From: Acidimicrobiales bacterium
Lineage (GTDB): Bacteria > Actinomycetota > Acidimicrobiia > Acidimicrobiales > CAIXPF01
Assembly (NCBI GenBank): GCA_046153015.1
Contig: JBJXGF010000407.1
Coordinates: 1 to 58,000, forward strand
DNA length: 58,000 nucleotides
Direction: 5' to 3'
A model generated the notes under the pieces. That model was not told the DNA's origin. It made no database searches and saw only the letters and a list, made by a program, of their open reading frames with translations. Positions 3,930 through 36,256 of this stretch are shown piece after piece; position 1 is the stretch's first letter, and each line of letters starts with the position of its first letter. The position numbers were made by a program, and so were the translations under genes.

Positions 3930-4883
3930 ATGCGCAAGGCGTTGGTGTGCGGTGCGGGCGGCTTCATCGGCGCCCATCTGGTCCGCCGGCTGGTCGGCGA
4001 GGGCGCGTGGGTGCGCGGGGTCGACGTGAAGGAGCCGGAGTTCTCACCCAGCGCCGCCCATGAGTTCGTGCTGGCCGACCTGCGCGAGCGCGACGAGTGC
4101 GCCAAGGCCGTGCACGGCGGGTTCGACGAGGTCTACCAGCTCGCCGCCGACATGGGCGGCATGGGCTTCATCCACTCGGCGGTGTGCGAGATCATGCGCA
4201 ACAACGTGCTGATCAACGTGCACATGATCGACGCCGCCGCCGAGGCCGGGGTGAGCAGCTACTTCTACTCCTCCTCGGTGTGCGTGTATCGAGACATGGC
4301 GCCGGGGGAGCCGGAGCTGTCCGAGGCCGAGGCGTACCCGGCGCTGCCCGACAACGACTACGGGTGGGAGAAGCTCTACTCCGAGCGGGTGGTCACCGCC
4401 TACGGCGAGCGCCACGGCATTCGGACCAGGATCGCCCGCTTCCAGAACACCTACGGCCCGGAGGGCACCTGGACCGGCGGCCGGGAGAAGGCCCCGGCGG
4501 CGATCTGCCGCAAGGTGGCCGAGGCGGCCGACGGGGGCGAGGTGGAGATCTGGGGCGACGGCAGCGCGATCCGCTCCTACACCTACGTCGACGACCTGCT
4601 CGACGGGATCCTGCTGCTGATGGCCTCCGAGCGGGCCGAACCGGTGAACATCGGCAACCCCGAGTACGTGTCGGTGCGCGATCTCGTCGACACGGTCGCC
4701 GCGGTGGCCGGCAAGCGGGTCACGATCCGCTCGGTCGACGGCCCCGTCGGGGTCCAGTCCCGCAACTTCTCCAACGCGGCCATCGAGGCGCTCGGCTTCC
4801 GGGCCCGCTACCCGCTGAACCGCGGGATCGAGCTCACCTACCCGTGGGTCGAGGCGCAGGTGAAGGCCGCCGCCCGGGGCTGA
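3930..4883 (+). CDS. NAD-dependent epimerase/dehydratase (GDP-mannose 3,5-epimerase-like SDR)
   Basis: The ATG at 3930 is preceded by ggagg. It has the GAGGFIG Rossmann motif and the YGWEK (YxxxK) catalytic motif. The 2373-4883 ORF is an over-extension. Confidence 0.9.
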   Translation: MRKALVCGAGGFIGAHLVRRLVGEGAWVRGVDVKEPEFSPSAAHEFVLADLRERDECAKAVHGGFDEVYQLAADMGGMGFIHSAVCEIMRNNVLINVHMIDAAAEAGVSSYFYSSSVCVYRDMAPGEPELSEAEAYPALPDNDYGWEKLYSERVVTAYGERHGIRTRIARFQNTYGPEGTWTGGREKAPAAICRKVAEAADGGEVEIWGDGSAIRSYTYVDDLLDGILLLMASERAEPVNIGNPEYVSVRDLVDTVAAVAGKRVTIRSVDGPVGVQSRNFSNAAIEALGFRARYPLNRGIELTYPWVEAQVKAAARG

Positions 4884-11477: not shown

Positions 11478-12514
11478 AACCGCGTTCCCAACCGAACCAA
11501 GGGCGCGGCGAGGCGCCCCCTCCCGCCGATCTCGCCGCGCTCAGCCGGCTCGCCGACGGGTTCCTCATCACCCAACTGCTGGGCGTCGCGGTCGAGCTCG
11601 GCATCGGCTCGGCGCTGGCGGCGGGGCCGCGCCGAGGGGCGGAGCTCGCCGCCGCCGTGGGCGCGGACCCCGATCGGCTCACCCGCGTGCTGCGCGGCCT
11701 CGCCGCCGAAGGCGTGCTCGACGAGGCGGCCGACGGCAAATTCGCGCTCACGAGCTGCGGGGCGGCGCTGCCGCTGCTCGAGGGGGCGATCCGCGTTCGG
11801 GCCGGGCTGTACAACCACGCCGCCGGCCGTCTGGTCGACGCCGTCCGCGCCGGAGGCGTGCCCTTCGAGCTGGCGCACGGCGTGTCGCTCTTCGCGCACC
11901 TCGACGGCCAACCGGAGCACGCCGCCGCCTTCCACGCCTCGATGGCCGACCGCTCCCAGCAGGAGGCCCGTGAGGTGGTCGCCGCGTACGACTTCGGCGG
12001 CGTCGGACGCGTCGTCGACGTCGGCGGCGGCGTCGGTCGCCTGCTCGCCGAGATCCTCCTCGCCGCGCCCGACGCAACCGGCGAGCTGATCGACCGCCCC
12101 GCCGCGGTCGCCGCCGCCCGATCCACGCTCGATGCCGCCGGTGTCGGCCCGCGGGCCTCGTGCACAGAGGGCGACTTCTTCGAGGCCTTGCCCACGGGCG
12201 GCGATGTCTACCTGCTCTCGCGCGTGCTGCACGACTGGGCCGACGACGACGCCCGCCGGATCCTGAGGAGCTGCAGCCTGGCGATGACCCCGGCGGCCAG
12301 GCTGCTCATCGTCGACGTGGTGCTCGGGCGCCGGCCGGCCGACAACCCGGCGGCGGTGCGCATGGACCTGCTCATGATGGTGCTTCTCGGCGCCCGGGAA
12401 CGCACCGAGGCCGAGCTCGCGAGCCTGCTGGCCGACACAGGCTTCGCCCTCCGCCGCTGCGTCGACACCGGCTCGGCCAGCGGCATCGCCATCCTCGAGG
12501 CGAGCCTGTGCTGA
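11474..12514 (+). CDS. class I O-methyltransferase (family 2, with an N-terminal dimerisation/wHTH domain)
   Basis: It has the SAM motif VVDVGGGVGRLL and LSRVLHDWADDDARRIL, typical of PF00891-type OMTs. The GTG at 11474 overlaps the cyclase stop (GTGA). Confidence 0.85.
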   Translation: MKPRSQPNQGRGEAPPPADLAALSRLADGFLITQLLGVAVELGIGSALAAGPRRGAELAAAVGADPDRLTRVLRGLAAEGVLDEAADGKFALTSCGAALPLLEGAIRVRAGLYNHAAGRLVDAVRAGGVPFELAHGVSLFAHLDGQPEHAAAFHASMADRSQQEAREVVAAYDFGGVGRVVDVGGGVGRLLAEILLAAPDATGELIDRPAAVAAARSTLDAAGVGPRASCTEGDFFEALPTGGDVYLLSRVLHDWADDDARRILRSCSLAMTPAARLLIVDVVLGRRPADNPAAVRMDLLMMVLLGARERTEAELASLLADTGFALRRCVDTGSASGIAILEASLC

Positions 12515-31523: not shown

Positions 31524-32258
31524 ATGCCGTTTTGCACATCGCTGGCCGTGCGGCACCTCGACGGGAAGGCGTGGCAGCTCACCTCGCCGCTCGTGTGGGA
31601 AGGCGGCGAGCAGCTCTACGTGATCCGCAGCGGCTTCGAGACCGACTTCGCCTCGATCCCCAAGCCGATGCGGTGGCTGCTCGACAACGCCGGCGCCAAC
31701 AGCGAGGCGGCGGTGCTGCACGACGCGGTGTGGCGGGAGTCGAAGCGGCCCGACAGGCCCCGGGTCGACCCCGCCGACGCCGACGGCATGTTTCGCCGAG
31801 CCCTGCGCGAGACCGGCGCCACCGCGCTCACCCGGGGGCTGATGTGGTTCGGGGTGCGGGCCGCGGCGATCGTGAAGGGCCGCTACGGGGCCGCCGGGCC
31901 GCCGCGGGTCACCAAGCTGGCGCAGCTCACCGGCATGGGGGTCCTCGGGTTGGTGACCGCGGGCGTTCCCACGGTCATCGCCGCCGTGGGCCTCGTGCTG
32001 TTCTGGCCGTGGAACTGGCTCGTGGCGCTGGTGTGGCGGGGCTACGAGAAGCGGCGCTTCCCGGGCTTCGCCGGCAACTGGCCCTGGCCCAGCGCCGCCC
32101 GCTCCACCCGCAGGTACCCGCCGCTGGAGGAGCGGCTGGTGATCCTGCCGTTGGCGTCGGAGCAGGCGGCGCAGGTCATTCAGGCGATCGTCGACCGCAT
32201 GATCGACGACGAGGCCCTCGACCCGATCCTGGGCGAGGGCGTTCGGTCGTCCCGCTAG
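31524..32258 (+). CDS. DUF1353-domain protein with C-terminal transmembrane segments
   Basis: It has the DUF1353 core IRSGFETDFASIPKPMRWLL...EAAVLHDAVW and the hydrophobic stretch LTGMGVLGLVTAGVPTVIAAVGLVLFWPW. The RBS is ggggaggg. Confidence 0.7.
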   Translation: MPFCTSLAVRHLDGKAWQLTSPLVWEGGEQLYVIRSGFETDFASIPKPMRWLLDNAGANSEAAVLHDAVWRESKRPDRPRVDPADADGMFRRALRETGATALTRGLMWFGVRAAAIVKGRYGAAGPPRVTKLAQLTGMGVLGLVTAGVPTVIAAVGLVLFWPWNWLVALVWRGYEKRRFPGFAGNWPWPSAARSTRRYPPLEERLVILPLASEQAAQVIQAIVDRMIDDEALDPILGEGVRSSR

Positions 32259-33964
32259 CGGCGGGCCAGGGGGCCGCGCAGCAGTTGGCCGGGGGCGGCG
32301 CCGGTGGGCTCGCCGTCGCGCAGCAGCACCTCGCCGTTGACCACCGTGGCCTTGAACCCCACGGCCTTCTGCACCAGGCGGCGGCTCCCGCCGGGCAGGT
32401 CGTGGCGCACCGTCGGCATGGCCGGCGCCACCCGCTCGGGGTCGAACACGTTGAGGTCGGCGGCCATGCCGACCCGCAGCAGCCCGCGGTCCTGGAACCC
32501 CCAGGCGCTGGCCGGCTCCAGCGTGAGCATCCGGACCGCCTCCTCCAAGCTGAACGCTTGGCGGTCCCGCACCCAGTGCGAGAGCAGGTGGGTCTGGATC
32601 GAGCTGTCCATGATCTGGCTCACGTGGGCGCCGGAGTCCGAGAACGTGACCACCGTGCGCGGGTGGCGCATCGTGGCCAAGAGGGCGTCCTGGTTCCAGT
32701 TGGCGATGACCTGCATGAACAGCTGGTCGAAATCGCTGTTCACGGCCAGGTCGATCATCAGCTCGACCGGGTCGAGACCACGCTCGGCGGCGACCTCGGC
32801 GACCGAACGCCACGGCGGGGTGGTGCGGTCCATGATCATGATCTCGTCGTAGCGGGGGGCGCGGGTCTCGGCGCCGATGCCCCGCCCGTACTGGCCCTCG
32901 TGCGCGGCCTTCACCAGCCAGGCCCGGGTCTCCGGGTCGGTGAACGCCCGCTTCTGGTCCTCCAGCGGCCGGCCTCGCACCTCGGCCCACTCGGCCAGCC
33001 CGTCGAAGGGCAGGCGGGTCTTCCACGAGAGCAGCACCGAGAACTCCCGGGCGTGGGCCTGGCCGAACATGCGCCCGCCGGCCGCGGCGGTCTCGTCGAT
33101 CAGGTCGAGCAGCCATTGGGAATCGGACCCGTCGGGCCGGGTGACGATCACGCCGAAGGTCACCGGGCGGCCCGTCTCGACCGCAAGGTCGCGGATGCGC
33201 CCGAAGTACTCGCCGCGCACCTCGGGGTCGCGGGTGCGGGCGGCCTGCTCGCTGGCGATCTCGAAGATGCCGGCGCCGAGGTCGCCCATGACCCCGACGA
33301 GGGCGCGCACCTCGTCCCAGGCGGCCAGGCGGCTGGCGACGGGGCGGTCGTCGGAGGTGGCGTGGTTGATCGTGCGGGAGGTCGAGAAGCCGATCGCGCC
33401 GGCCCGCAGCGAGTCGCGGAGCTCACGGGCCATGACGGCCAGGTCGTCGGGCGTGGCCTCGGCTTCGAAGGCGCGCTCGCCCATGGCGAAGGTCCGCAGC
33501 GCGGAGTGGCCCACGTAGCCGGCGTAGTTGATGCCCTTCGGCACCCGCTCCAGGGTGTCGAGGTACTCGGGGAAGGTCTCCCAGCTCCAGGTGATGCCCT
33601 GGGCCATCGCCTCGGCCGAGATGTCCTCCGCCCGTTCGAGGTTGCGCACCACGAGCGGGCGCTCATGGGAGCGGGCCGGGGCCAGCGTGAAGCCGCAGTT
33701 GCCCATGACCACGCTGGTGACGCCGTGGTACACCGAGCACTCGCCGAGGCCGTCCCACATGATCTGGGCGTCCATGTGGGTGTGGCCGTCGACGAAGCCG
33801 GGGGTGACCACGTGGCCCTCGGCGTCGATCTCCTGGCGGCCCTTGTCGCTGATGCGGCCGAGCGCGGCGATGCGCCCATGGCGCACGCCCACATCGGCCC
33901 GCCAGCGGGGCAGGCCGGTCCCGTCGATCACGACGCCGTTGCGGATGACCAGGTCGTACTGCAT
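32255..33964 (-). CDS. N-acyl-D-amino-acid deacylase (D-aminoacylase) family amidohydrolase
   Basis: It has MQYDLVIRNGVVIDGTG...GRI and the metal motif PGFVDGHTHMD. The 569-aa length is typical of the family. Confidence 0.85.
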   Translation of the reverse strand: MQYDLVIRNGVVIDGTGLPRWRADVGVRHGRIAALGRISDKGRQEIDAEGHVVTPGFVDGHTHMDAQIMWDGLGECSVYHGVTSVVMGNCGFTLAPARSHERPLVVRNLERAEDISAEAMAQGITWSWETFPEYLDTLERVPKGINYAGYVGHSALRTFAMGERAFEAEATPDDLAVMARELRDSLRAGAIGFSTSRTINHATSDDRPVASRLAAWDEVRALVGVMGDLGAGIFEIASEQAARTRDPEVRGEYFGRIRDLAVETGRPVTFGVIVTRPDGSDSQWLLDLIDETAAAGGRMFGQAHAREFSVLLSWKTRLPFDGLAEWAEVRGRPLEDQKRAFTDPETRAWLVKAAHEGQYGRGIGAETRAPRYDEIMIMDRTTPPWRSVAEVAAERGLDPVELMIDLAVNSDFDQLFMQVIANWNQDALLATMRHPRTVVTFSDSGAHVSQIMDSSIQTHLLSHWVRDRQAFSLEEAVRMLTLEPASAWGFQDRGLLRVGMAADLNVFDPERVAPAMPTVRHDLPGGSRRLVQKAVGFKATVVNGEVLLRDGEPTGAAPGQLLRGPLARR

Positions 33965-34046
33965 GCAACCCCCCTGCGCTCTGCCGGTTCGCCGGCGGCC
34001 ACCACGTTACGGCGCCAAGCTCGGGTGGGGGAGGGCGGCGCAGGTG

Positions 34047-34178
34047 ACGGTGAGCGGAGCGAACCGCCCGAGCGGCGGAGAGCGGGAGACACGGTGAGCG
34101 GAGCGAACCGCCCGAGCGGCGGAGAGCGGGAGACACGGTGAGCGGAGCGAACCGCCCGAGCGGCGGAGAGCGGGCAGA
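34047..34178 (+). repeat. 44-bp tandem repeat, about 2.9 copies (VNTR/MIRU-like)
   Basis: The unit is acggtgagcggagcgaaccgcccgagcggcggagagcgggagac. Copies at 34047-34090 and 34091-34134 are identical. The third copy (from 34135) is identical for 40 nt and runs into the CoA-transferase coding sequence. Confidence 0.95.
34050..34141 (+). promoter_or_regulatory. two chained 15-codon uORFs created by the 44-bp repeat
   Basis: The uORFs run from GTG 34050 to TGA 34095-34097 and from GTG 34094 to TGA 34139-34141. Both encode (M)SGANRPSGGERETR. Each stop overlaps the next GTG (GTGA). GGGAG lies 5 nt upstream of the second and third GTG. Confidence 0.4.
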
Positions 34179-35397
34179 ACGAGATACCCAGCGCGGGCGG
34201 CTGCTGGAGGGGTACCGGGTGCTCGACCTGTCGCAGTACGTGGCCGGCCCGGGGGTGACCCGGATGATGGCCGAGCTGGGCGCCGACGTGATCAAGATCG
34301 AGACCGCGCCCGACGGCGACGCGGCGCGGCTGCTGCCGGTGGTGGTCGACGGCCGCTCCAGCCTGTTCGTGCACCAGAGCCGCGGCAAGCGCTCGGTGTG
34401 CGTGGACTGGTCGCAGCCTGAGGGCCTCGCCCTGATCCGGGAGCTCGTGCCGGCCTGCGACGCGGTGGTGGAGAACTTCGGCCACGGCGTGCTCGAGCGC
34501 CGTGGGCTCGATTACGAGTCGCTGCGGCCGCTGCGGCCCGACCTCGTGTACGTGTCGATCTCGGCGTTCGGCCGGCGCTCGCCGTGGGCGGACCGCCCCG
34601 GCTTCGACGGTGTGGTCCAAGCGTTCTCCGGGCTCATGCACATGGCCGGCGACCCCGACGGGCCGCCCCAGGCGGTGGGCTTCGCCATCGTCGACAACTC
34701 GGCCGCCGTGCACGCCTTCGCCGCCCTCGGCTACGCGCTGCTGCACCGGGAACGCACCGGGATCGGCCAGCACATCGACATCGCGATGGCCGACGTGATG
34801 CTGCACCTGCAGGAGGTGCTCCCCAGCTGGCACGCCAGCGGCGGGTCGTACGTGCCCAACCGGATGGGCCGCCAGCATCCGCTCGTGTTCCCCGTCGGCT
34901 TCTACGAGGCGCACGACGGCTGGTTCTTCATGCTCTGCCTCGACCGCCAGTGGCCGAACCTGTGCCGGGCGATGGGCCGCCCCGAGCTGGCCGAGGACCC
35001 GCGTTACGCCGAGGGGCCCTCTCGCGCCGCCAACCAGGCCGACCTCGTGCCGATCGTGCAGGCGTGGCTGCTGTCGTTCCCCGACGACGACGCGGCCCTC
35101 GCCGCCTGCCTCGAGCACCGGGTGCCGATCTCGAAGGTGAACTCGCCGGTGGACCTCGTGACCCACCCGCACTACCTGGCGCGCGACATGATCCGCTACG
35201 TGCCCGACCCGGTCCTCGGCGAGGTGCTGATTCCCGGGTTCCCGTTCAAGTTCGGCGCCGAGCCGCCGGCCGCCGAGCTGCACGCCCCGCTCCTCGGGCA
35301 GCACAACCGGGAGGTGCTGGGGGAGCTGCTCGGCTACGACGAAGCCCGCACGACTGCGCTGGAGAAGGCCGGGGTGCTCGTGACCGGGCCCCGCTGA
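34138..35397 (+). CDS. family III CoA-transferase (CaiB/BaiF), copy 3
   Basis: It has LEGYRVLDLSQYVAGPGVTRMMAELGADVIKIE. The N-terminal 12 residues are encoded by the third repeat copy. Confidence 0.85.
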   Translation: MSGANRPSGGERAERDTQRGRLLEGYRVLDLSQYVAGPGVTRMMAELGADVIKIETAPDGDAARLLPVVVDGRSSLFVHQSRGKRSVCVDWSQPEGLALIRELVPACDAVVENFGHGVLERRGLDYESLRPLRPDLVYVSISAFGRRSPWADRPGFDGVVQAFSGLMHMAGDPDGPPQAVGFAIVDNSAAVHAFAALGYALLHRERTGIGQHIDIAMADVMLHLQEVLPSWHASGGSYVPNRMGRQHPLVFPVGFYEAHDGWFFMLCLDRQWPNLCRAMGRPELAEDPRYAEGPSRAANQADLVPIVQAWLLSFPDDDAALAACLEHRVPISKVNSPVDLVTHPHYLARDMIRYVPDPVLGEVLIPGFPFKFGAEPPAAELHAPLLGQHNREVLGELLGYDEARTTALEKAGVLVTGPR

Positions 35398-35431: not shown

Positions 35432-36256
35432 ATGCTCGCCGCCATGACCGACCGAGTCACGATCCAGATCGAGCGCGGCGTGGCCGACGTCCGCCTCAAC
35501 CGCCCCGAGAAGCTCAACGCGCTCGACCTGCCCATGTTCGCCGCGCTCATCGAGGCCGGCGAGGCGGTCGCCGCCGACCCCACCGTGCGCGCCGTCGTGC
35601 TCTCGGGCGAGGGGCGGGGGTTCTGCTCCGGGCTCGACTTCAGCGCGTTCCAGGCCATGAGCGGGGAGCGGCGCGGCGAGGGCGGCGGCGGGGTGGGCGA
35701 GAACCTGTTCGCCAAGCGCTTCGGCGTCGCCAACGCCGGCCAACAGGCCGTGTACGTGTGGAGCTCGATGGCGGCGCCGGTGATCGCCGCGATCCACGGC
35801 CCGGCCCTCGGCGGCGGCGCGCAGCTCGCCCTCGGCTGCGACCTGCGCATCGTGTCACCCGACGCCCAGCTCTCGATCCTCGAGATCCGCTGGGGCCTGG
35901 CGCCCGACATGACCGGCACCCAGACGCTGCCCCGCCTCGTGGGCCTCGACGTGGCGAAGGAGCTCACCTTCACCGGGCGGATGGTGAGCGGCGAGGAGGC
36001 GCTGCGCATCGGTCTCGCCACCCGGCTCTCGGAGCGCCCGCGGGACGACGCGCTCGCCCTGGCGCAGGAGATCGCGGCGAAGAACCCGCACGCCATCCGG
36101 GGGGCCAAGGCCCTGCTCGACCAGTCCTGCCGCGTGAGCCTCAGCGAGGGCCTGGCCGCGGAGGAGCGGACGATCAAGGCGCTGATCGGCAGCCCCAATC
36201 AGCGCGAGGCGGTCAAGGCGTTCTTCGACAAGCGAGACCCGGTGTTCGAGGACTGA
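35432..36256 (+). CDS. enoyl-CoA hydratase/isomerase (crotonase) family protein
   Basis: It has VADVRLNRPEKLNAL and the oxyanion-hole region LSGEGRGFCSGLD. An alternative ATG lies at 35444 (MTDRV). Confidence 0.9.
   Translation: MLAAMTDRVTIQIERGVADVRLNRPEKLNALDLPMFAALIEAGEAVAADPTVRAVVLSGEGRGFCSGLDFSAFQAMSGERRGEGGGGVGENLFAKRFGVANAGQQAVYVWSSMAAPVIAAIHGPALGGGAQLALGCDLRIVSPDAQLSILEIRWGLAPDMTGTQTLPRLVGLDVAKELTFTGRMVSGEEALRIGLATRLSERPRDDALALAQEIAAKNPHAIRGAKALLDQSCRVSLSEGLAAEERTIKALIGSPNQREAVKAFFDKRDPVFED

Follow-up and report, generated by a model that had tools for sequence, protein, structure and literature searches.

A 44-bp tandem repeat at the start codon of a CoA-transferase gene is probably part of a dispersed minisatellite family resembling mycobacterial interspersed repetitive units

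Why should the gene for a CoA-transferase begin inside a tandem repeat whose units bring their own start codons? The question is raised by a 58-kb stretch of DNA (positions 1 to 58,000 of contig JBJXGF010000407.1; hereafter the window), in which a 44-bp repeat at 34047-34174 runs into the 5' end of a family III CoA-transferase gene. We consider it probable, with good confidence, that this array comprises three units of a dispersed minisatellite element, similar to the interspersed repetitive units of mycobacteria (MIRUs), lodged at the translation start of the CoA-transferase. The array sits in the standard orientation and register of its family.

Tandem Repeats Finder, applied to the window, gave a period of 44, 2.9 copies, 100% matches, and a score of 256 for 34047-34174, by far the strongest repeat present, and a base-by-base check found the 44-nt periodicity to be perfect across 128 nt (two full units plus 40 nt). 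Unit 1 (34050..34093) and unit 2 (34094..34137), both on the + strand, are 44 nt in length, belong to the subfamily designated A, and are 100% identical; they consist of GTGAGCGG, a 28-nt core, and GAGACACG. Unit 3 (34138..34174, + strand) is partial, having 37 nt from its GTG and lacking the terminal linker and GTGA, and it is joined in frame to the CoA-transferase, to which it supplies the start codon and codons 1-12. A compact 4-nt change at 34171-34184 sets unit 3 apart from units 1 and 2 (GGGAGACACGG versus GGGCAGAACGA); it abolishes the terminal GTGA stop/start, leaves the unit reading frame in that of the enzyme, and may be either a post-insertion mutation or the original junction. The unit 1 copy of a GC hairpin or palindrome, CCGCC-CGAGC-GGCGG, which shows covariation across the family, is located at 34064..34078 (+ strand), with equivalents at 34108-34122 (unit 2) and 34152-34166 (unit 3).

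Because the 44-nt unit is 2 mod 3 in length, the TGA that closes each unit open reading frame (ORF) overlaps the following start codon. Unit ORF 1 (34044..34097, + strand) has 17 codons when read from GTG 34044 or 15 from GTG 34050 and terminates at TGA 34095-34097, which overlaps GTG 34094 to form GTGA; unit ORF 2 (34094..34141, + strand) has 15 codons, and its TGA at 34139-34141 overlaps GTG 34138 in the same way. On translation, GTG 34050 and GTG 34094 each encode VSGANRPSGGERETR followed by a stop, and the 17-codon version of unit ORF 1 from GTG 34044 reads VTVSGANRPSGGERETR followed by a stop. The Shine-Dalgarno (SD)-like motif GGGAG is found at 34084..34088 and again at 34128..34132 (both + strand), 5 nt upstream of GTG 34094 and GTG 34138, respectively. 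A GGAGG sequence at 34030..34034 (+ strand), which precedes GTG 34044 by 9 nt and GTG 34050 by 15 nt, is likely the native ribosome-binding site of the locus, a function assigned by reading the sequence; since it stands 9 nt upstream of the in-frame GTG 34044, the first small ORF may have 17 codons. The geometry of termination-reinitiation is thus present, with GTGA at 34094-34097 and 34138-34141, GGGAG 5 nt upstream of each, and all of these on the same strand.

These results uphold part of what a preliminary description of this DNA had proposed. The 44-bp tandem repeat with stop/start-overlapping small ORFs was recovered by Tandem Repeats Finder, the periodicity check, and translation, and the termination-reinitiation geometry that had been suggested is seen in the GTGA overlaps of the translated frames. 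Some details required correction. Three copies had been placed at 34047-34178; the array is real, but it ends at 34174 and the third copy is partial. GGGAG had been described 5 nt upstream of every GTG, which is true of copies 2 and 3, whereas copy 1 is preceded by the stronger GGAGG. The sharing of the first codons with the enzyme extends over 12 codons, not about 13, and the 15-residue peptide assigned to copies 1 and 2 agrees with our translations except that the ORF of copy 1 can have 17 codons from GTG 34044.

The CoA-transferase gene (34138..35397, + strand) encodes 419 residues, of which residues 23-390 match Pfam CoA_transf_3 (E = 1.6e-113), and the conserved part of the protein begins at residue 22-23. 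Between GTG 34138 and the conserved domain, the in-frame candidates for a start are two CTGs and one GTG that lies within the conserved RVLDLS motif, so GTG 34138 is the sole plausible canonical start, in keeping with the earlier proposal that only the third GTG opens the 419-residue enzyme. The closest homologs, with 64-66% identity, come from metagenome-assembled genomes (MAGs) of Acidimicrobiia or Acidimicrobiales; an exact-protein look-up of the window enzyme returned no record, the closest homolog being 66% identical. Homologs start 0-21 residues ahead of a conserved MLEGYRVLDLS, and their N-terminal extensions are variable and unconserved. Nearly all have Met immediately before LEGYRVLDLS, and in several this Met is the start codon. 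At the corresponding position of the window enzyme (codons 22-23, 34201-34206) the conserved Met is replaced by Leu (CTG), and the repeat-encoded N-terminus is not present in any aligned homolog. The enzyme start codon and first 12 codons derive from the element, and the CoA-transferase now appears to depend on the element-derived GTG 34138.

The evidence for a dispersed element comes from outside the window. Within the window, no second match to the 44-bp unit was found at ≤3 mismatches (chance expectation 0). We scanned one genome per GTDB species with a 26-nt core of the unit as an exact query and obtained one match, on a 3.4-kb contig of an Acidimicrobiia MAG (L001 in our numbering of contigs and loci). 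L001 carries an identical 39-nt core, GTGAGCGGAGCGAACCGCCCGAGCGGCGGAGAGCGGGAG, as a 42-bp array of three units that lies in frame at the 5' end of uppS, the gene for undecaprenyl-diphosphate synthase. The same contig has a second array, of 44 bp and with a diverged unit, between uppS and recO. In an ungapped comparison, this second unit equals the window unit at 33 of 44 positions; 5000 shuffles, tried in every rotation, reached 29 at most. The TGA of uppS overlaps the first unit's GTG, every unit ORF stops on the next GTG, and recO itself starts at the last GTG, as RecO_N aligns from residue 1.

Further arrays were revealed in ENA assemblies when the repeat, translated in all open frames, was compared with a protein collection; among them are arrays between rimI and tsaD, arrays before hisC, and arrays of 9-10 units annotated as spurious antisense proteins. 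A first metagenome scan with the exact 26-mer returned 0 matches. A second scan, of JGI contigs with a degenerate 28-nt core pattern of our own design (AGCGARYSGCCYSAGCGGCSRRGAGCGG), matched at least 120 contigs, mainly from soil and rhizosphere. In total, at least 135 arrays were collected and dereplicated to at least about 106 distinct loci, and diverged units stand at about 100 unrelated genes among the matches listed. Among the downstream genes are those for ribosomal proteins, enolase, and ABC ATPases, together with recO, tsaD, and maf. Contigs L001, L002, and L005 carry 2 to 4 sites each, compared with one in the 58-kb window. L002 (12.5 kb) has sites at 140-372, 1941-2187, 4489-4532, and ∼11804-11831 with 42-nt arrays and single 50-nt units, a site density far above that of the window; subfamilies of the element coexist in one genome, since these three or four sites belong to two of them. 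Annotated plasmids gave no match to the element.

These findings reverse one claim of the preliminary description, in which the repeat arose by duplication of the ribosome-binding site, start codon, and opening codons of the transferase itself: uppS is preceded by the same 39-nt core, and about 100 unrelated genes by related units. As the unit core recurs at unrelated genes, descent would run in the opposite direction, from the element to the start of the enzyme. A search for the 44-mer beyond its locus had also been envisaged; it found no other copy in the window, and the core was found in other genomes. The suggested likeness to MIRU-type variable-number tandem repeats gained support, as the family has MIRU-like placement, orientation, −4 overlaps, empty and filled sites, and copy-number variation.

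Four length subfamilies, of 42/44, 50/51, 53, and 71 nt, are built on one core, and 1 to 10 units are present per site, strictly head-to-tail and never as inverted pairs. Each unit is composed of a start codon within [AG]TGAGCG, the 28-nt core with its GC hairpin or palindrome, a purine-rich SD-like stretch, and a short linker extending up to the next [AG]TGA. Throughout the family, the purine-rich GAGCGG(A/G)GA precedes each following start codon by 4-9 nt. Subfamily A uses frame 2 of the core, subfamily B frame 1, and subfamily D frame 0; because different subfamilies read it in three frames, the core is constrained as a nucleotide sequence and not as a peptide. Modal unit lengths in 49 short-read arrays were 2 mod 3 in 25 cases, 0 mod 3 in 17, and 1 mod 3 in 7. 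The 71-nt units (L006, L009, L011, L026, L035, L040, L049, L106, and others) have an extra module after the common core (GAAGCACAGAGCGAACGCACGGAGTGCGGC) that contains a short inverted repeat of its own, CGCAC...GTGCG, and they follow the start-codon rule described below less often, at 11 of 16 loci.

Positions 16 and 28 of the unit had been left free (C or G) in the search pattern, which allowed covariation to be assessed. This pair was C-G in 43 loci, G-C in 63, and unpaired in 2, and positions 15 and 29 were C-G or T-G in 98 of 108; off-pattern units contribute little to this evidence. The covariation fits a 5-bp GC hairpin or palindrome, as may be drawn for the window sequence given above.

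We examined the chain of start codons across loci by walking from the first unit start through successive stop/start overlaps and checking if this path terminated at a long ORF in the coding frame. The coding frame was inferred independently from codon-position composition downstream of the array, on the basis of GC content at codon position 1 exceeding that at position 2 plus enrichment of G at position 1; GC content at position 3 alone is strand-blind. Tried on 29 test windows taken from five Pfam-supported genes in the 58-kb stretch, this classifier was right in all 29. The chain ended on a same-strand long ORF in the coding frame in 55 of the 70 assessable distinct loci (binomial p = 8e-30 versus a chance of 1/6), including 18 of 21 loci of the window's subfamily, and the downstream gene was co-oriented in 66 of 70. 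That the end points are native starts is indicated by Pfam alignments: Ribosomal_L14 aligns over positions 1-122 of 122 and Enolase_N from residue 4, with MoeA_N, Pyr_redox_2, and Sua5 beginning 5-12 residues in from the predicted starts. Moreover, independent gene callers picked the same starts, given that five of the seven predicted proteins looked up exist as exact public sequences.

Upstream of the array, a co-oriented gene with a stop that overlaps the first unit start was present at 34 of 66 loci, and a divergent gene, as in the window, at 13. In-frame fusion of unit and gene, the arrangement in the window, was observed in 12 of the 55 well-behaved loci, and the layout of L113 is identical. 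In 6 of 75 loci, compared with 0.2% of control positions, a TANNNT hexamer (TAGCGT or TACGAT) precedes the first unit start by 6-8 nt; cases are L001 (∼2492-2497), both L005 arrays, L063, L112, L125, and L026. From this motif it would seem that the start codons occupied by some elements are leaderless; the window has an apparent SD sequence instead.

A series of filled and empty sites was found at the junction of rpsQ and rplN (ribosomal proteins S17 and L14) within an essential ribosomal protein operon, where 0, 1, or 2 units are present exactly at the GTGA stop/start overlap. The L14 proteins of the whole series (L126-L135 and L107) are identical or 97-99% identical; one and the same protein is encoded by L126-L129, and its counterpart in L131, L133, and L135 is 97% identical to it. 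The site is empty in L128, L131, L133, and L135, which have the junction ...GAGCGTGCCAAGTGATCCAG, with the S17 TGA overlapping the L14 GTG; within the identical-L14 set (L126-L129) the empty junction reads ...CCAAGTGATCCAG. L129 has exactly one 44-nt unit, between CCAA and GTGATCC, and two units are present in L107 and L127 (42 + 44 nt) and in L126 (a variant pair). GTGA flanks the insert on either side at every filled site. The unit number differs at six or more other orthologous groups. All downstream genes match the unit 5' end over at least [AG]TGA, and the general match of unit and gene is limited to [AG]TGA(GCGA). A long, locus-specific target-site duplication was considered and rejected, because in subfamilies A and D units matched their own genes no better than permuted partners did, and in B the advantage was weak (p = 0.017).

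Identical adjacent units were found in seven other independent short-read arrays (L008, L114, L030, L099, and others). Short-read contigs seldom exceed 4 units and long-read contigs reach about 10, from which it follows that short-read assemblies may collapse long arrays. L003 (10462-10860) and L004 (10369-10791) have about 10 units in long-read assemblies with many single-base differences in unit length, which may be real or may be sequencing errors.

Two neighbors of the window array define its setting. An amidohydrolase gene (32255..33964, − strand; ORF list and Pfam) is divergently oriented, which places the array in the promoter-proximal intergenic stretch between two divergent genes and not within an operon. 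Downstream, an enoyl-CoA hydratase/isomerase gene (35432..36256, + strand; Pfam) is probably co-transcribed with the transferase gene. A promoter and terminator scan of the window found nothing; it used E. coli-type models, which are uninformative at 73% GC. A GCAG direct repeat around the whole array and an ancestral GTG at 34025 were both dropped as too weak.

The arrangement suggests how the enzyme could be made. Ribosomes would load at the native GGAGG, start at GTG 34044 or GTG 34050, and translate the 15-17 codons of unit ORF 1. They would terminate at the UGA within GUGA and reinitiate on the overlapping GUG, or a fresh 30S subunit would be recruited by GGGAG, and the same termination and restart would be repeated through unit 2. 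The enzyme would then be started at GTG 34138, with its first 12 codons contributed by the fused third unit. Such an architecture would allow the element to occupy a start codon and to grow by slippage at low cost to the host gene. We infer coupling from the geometry; expression neutrality and the mode of spread are likewise presumed.

Several observations weigh against our account of the array and its translation. The array is the only one in the whole window, protein homolog and 26-mer scans found no orthologous locus or second assembly for the window site, and the three-unit copy number comes from the assembly and no other source. Unit 3, in lacking the terminal GTGA, departs from the canonical unit ending. 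At the family level, locus counts are not fully independent, since the search pattern was of our own design and the metagenome populations are possibly related; the host assignment has two sources, the L001 MAG record and the best hits of the window; and the hairpin covariation could stem from just one or two ancestral changes. The chain rule is broken at 15 of the 70 loci, units of 0 mod 3 length are common (17 of 49 arrays), and RNA of the window array is predicted to fold like shuffled sequence (z = −0.10). Each junction also has its own SD-like motif, with which independent initiation would be equally workable. It is possible, though in our judgment the less probable case, that the element is as described and its unit ORFs are irrelevant: the enzyme would be made by independent initiation at GTG 34138 through the GGGAG located 5 nt upstream, and the stop/start overlaps would be a by-product of insertion at NTGA instead of a coupling device. 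Good SD spacing at every junction fits this alternative, as do the third of arrays with 0 mod 3 units, which give in-frame read-through and no stop/start chains, the fusion of units to the gene at 12 of 55 loci, and an array RNA devoid of unusual structure that would need unfolding. The rarity of 1 mod 3 lengths (7 of 49), which break both arrangements, is harder to reconcile with it. That 55 of 70 loci follow the chain rule, essential genes for ribosomal proteins and enolase among them, points to selection for translation without interruption, and a −4 overlap with an upstream SD is the classic coupling configuration in the literature (PMC12548453).

The remaining alternatives concern the array itself. 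That its copy number is an assembly artefact, with a single unit or some other number inflated or collapsed in a 128-nt perfect repeat, is rather unlikely. The units are perfectly identical, their 44-nt period is below what typical k-mers and reads resolve unambiguously, and the rimI-tsaD junction has 6 units in the long-read L002 and 1 in the short-read L016; nevertheless, the seven short-read arrays noted above also have perfectly identical neighboring units, an array of just 128 nt can be spanned by single 150-nt reads, and 1 or 4 units would put the first GTG in the enzyme frame, whereas the observed 3 obey the chain rule. We give very little credence to the idea that the repeat is local and private to this gene, having arisen when replication slippage duplicated in tandem the ribosome-binding site, start, and first codons of the CoA-transferase itself, and that no mobile or dispersed element took part. 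Such a recent local event would account for the 100% identity of units 1 and 2, for the continuation of the third copy into coding sequence, and for the solitary array in the window, but not for the identical 39-nt core before uppS in another genome, the diverged units at about 100 unrelated genes, or the lack of the repeat-encoded N-terminus in all homologs of the enzyme. Slippage probably explains the growth from one to three units and not the origin of the unit. Least probable of all, and slightly less so than private duplication, is a leader dedicated to cis-regulation of the transferase/crotonase operon, for example a uORF attenuator, a riboswitch, or a structured 5' untranslated region. 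The location of small ORFs in the 5' leader of a metabolic operon would suit this explanation; against it, neither the window array nor nine representative other arrays match any family in Rfam 15, folding is no better than that of shuffled sequences, the peptide is unconserved with the core read in three frames, and the unit precedes functionally unrelated genes. Because it also stands before ribosomal-protein, glycolytic, DNA-repair, and tRNA-modification genes, the unit is unlikely to be a regulator that evolved for this operon.

We therefore return to the MIRU-like element as the preferred explanation of the window array. A broader proposal, on which we are about evenly divided, is that with this array a large family of mobile minisatellites of the MIRU type, as yet undescribed, has been seen for the first time outside mycobacteria. 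The family would be widespread in uncultured soil Actinomycetota (Acidimicrobiia at least) and would insert precisely at NTGA, either at a start codon or at a stop/start junction, and its units would carry their own start codon, SD motif, hairpin, and overlapping stop and hence be tolerated even by ribosomal-protein and glycolytic genes.

MIRUs are a mainstay of tuberculosis typing, and their biology has remained unsettled for more than 25 years with regard to spread, start-codon siting, and coupling. An independent family in another actinobacterial class, possibly a very distant relative, would make start-codon-riding minisatellites a general solution rather than a peculiarity of mycobacteria. 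The present family offers a natural series of insertions, empty sites, and copy numbers, including those in ribosomal-protein operons, and its conserved 28-nt core and hairpin provide a handle for finding the mobilizing activity. If the proposal is true, the movement of MIRU-like elements could become tractable, for example by way of a trans-acting single-strand- or hairpin-recognizing enzyme with an NTGA target, as could the question of whether chained termination-reinitiation carries ribosomes through the units. For the window, the consequence would be a CoA-transferase that relies on an element-derived start codon and bears 12 element-derived residues. The arrays also matter for annotation, as they mislead gene callers into fused proteins (RimI-TsaD, S17-L14), false N-terminal extensions, and spurious antisense ORFs. 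Miscalled proteins include P0121 (L002, 1539-2522), P0122 (L003), P0123 (L004), P0126 (L005), and P0219/P0220; among the miscalls are a RimI-TsaD read-through fusion, 300-residue antisense readings of 9-10-unit arrays, and L14 with repeat-derived N-termini.

How closely, then, does the element resemble known systems? MIRUs are 40-100 bp in length, occur singly or in tandem, are dispersed in intergenic regions, and are transcribed with flanking genes, with ORF ends that overlap those genes; their filled sites have tetranucleotide direct repeats, and they contain GC-rich internal inverted repeats (PMC3184786). According to PMC12548453, which cites Supply et al. 1997 (Mol Microbiol 26:991), they insert at start codons and their internal ORF is coupled at −4 spacing. 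One review restricts MIRUs to mycobacteria (PMC6286618). The literature we searched, which covered few subscription journals, yielded no description of MIRU-like elements outside mycobacteria or of the core sequence. No relationship in sequence was detected with the one MIRU sequence compared, the published 53-bp unit (PMC6286618): pairwise local alignments gave p values of 0.03-0.2 versus shuffles, and family profiles scored the 53-mer at ≤1.6 bits, no better than shuffles. Homology argued from the spacing of a shared GAGCG-N-AGCGA ... GAGCGGCG motif was rejected, both the pairwise and the profile tests being nonsignificant.

The likeness is one of architecture. The element resembles MIRUs in unit length and head-to-tail or single occurrence (44 bp × 2.9 in the window and 42/44, 50/51, 53, and 71 bp in the family), perhaps in dispersal at many intergenic sites (at least about 106 loci across metagenomes, with the one site in the 58-kb window), in having the same orientation as the flanking genes with ORF starts and stops overlapping the neighbors' stops and starts (−4), and in unit lengths that are 2 mod 3 (53 bp for MIRU; 44, 50, 53, and 71 bp here). 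At the family level, it also shares a tetranucleotide direct repeat at filled sites (GTGA at S17-L14) and a copy number that varies between related genomes (six or more orthologous loci), and a GC-rich internal inverted repeat and a host in the phylum Actinomycetota are further points in common. It differs in its host class, which is Acidimicrobiia (MAG record and best hits of 64-66% identity) and not Mycobacterium, in having several length subfamilies around one 28-nt core read in three frames, and in that many arrays lie near promoters, some arrays use start codons that look leaderless, and some, as in the window, are fused in frame. On these comparisons, the family has the architecture of MIRUs without belonging to the MIRU sequence family.

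Other systems share parts of this design. Gene pairs that overlap as ATGA or GTGA show termination-reinitiation coupling (Huber et al. 2019, 2023, as summarized in the review PMC12548453), and like them the element units have a 4-nt stop/start overlap between ORFs of one strand, the upstream ORF containing an SD-like motif within its final part; unlike them, the upstream ORFs here are 15-17 codons long, supplied by a repeat, and chained two or more in a row, and their coupling is putative. REP, BIME, and REPIN sequences (PMC3184786) are also short, GC-rich, dispersed in intergenic regions, capable of a small stem-loop, and non-autonomous, with no transposase coding capacity. The units here are, in contrast, head-to-tail and never inverted pairs, have a stem of about 5 bp, occur at gene 5' ends and start codons and not at 3' ends, and carry start and stop codons in a fixed register. 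Finally, the synthetic bicistronic design, as cited in PMC12548453 (its reference 78), uses a short leader ORF that ends on the gene start, with an SD inside, for context-independent delivery of ribosomes. The window array and its relatives have a corresponding layout that is natural, repeated, and apparently mobile, with a putative function.

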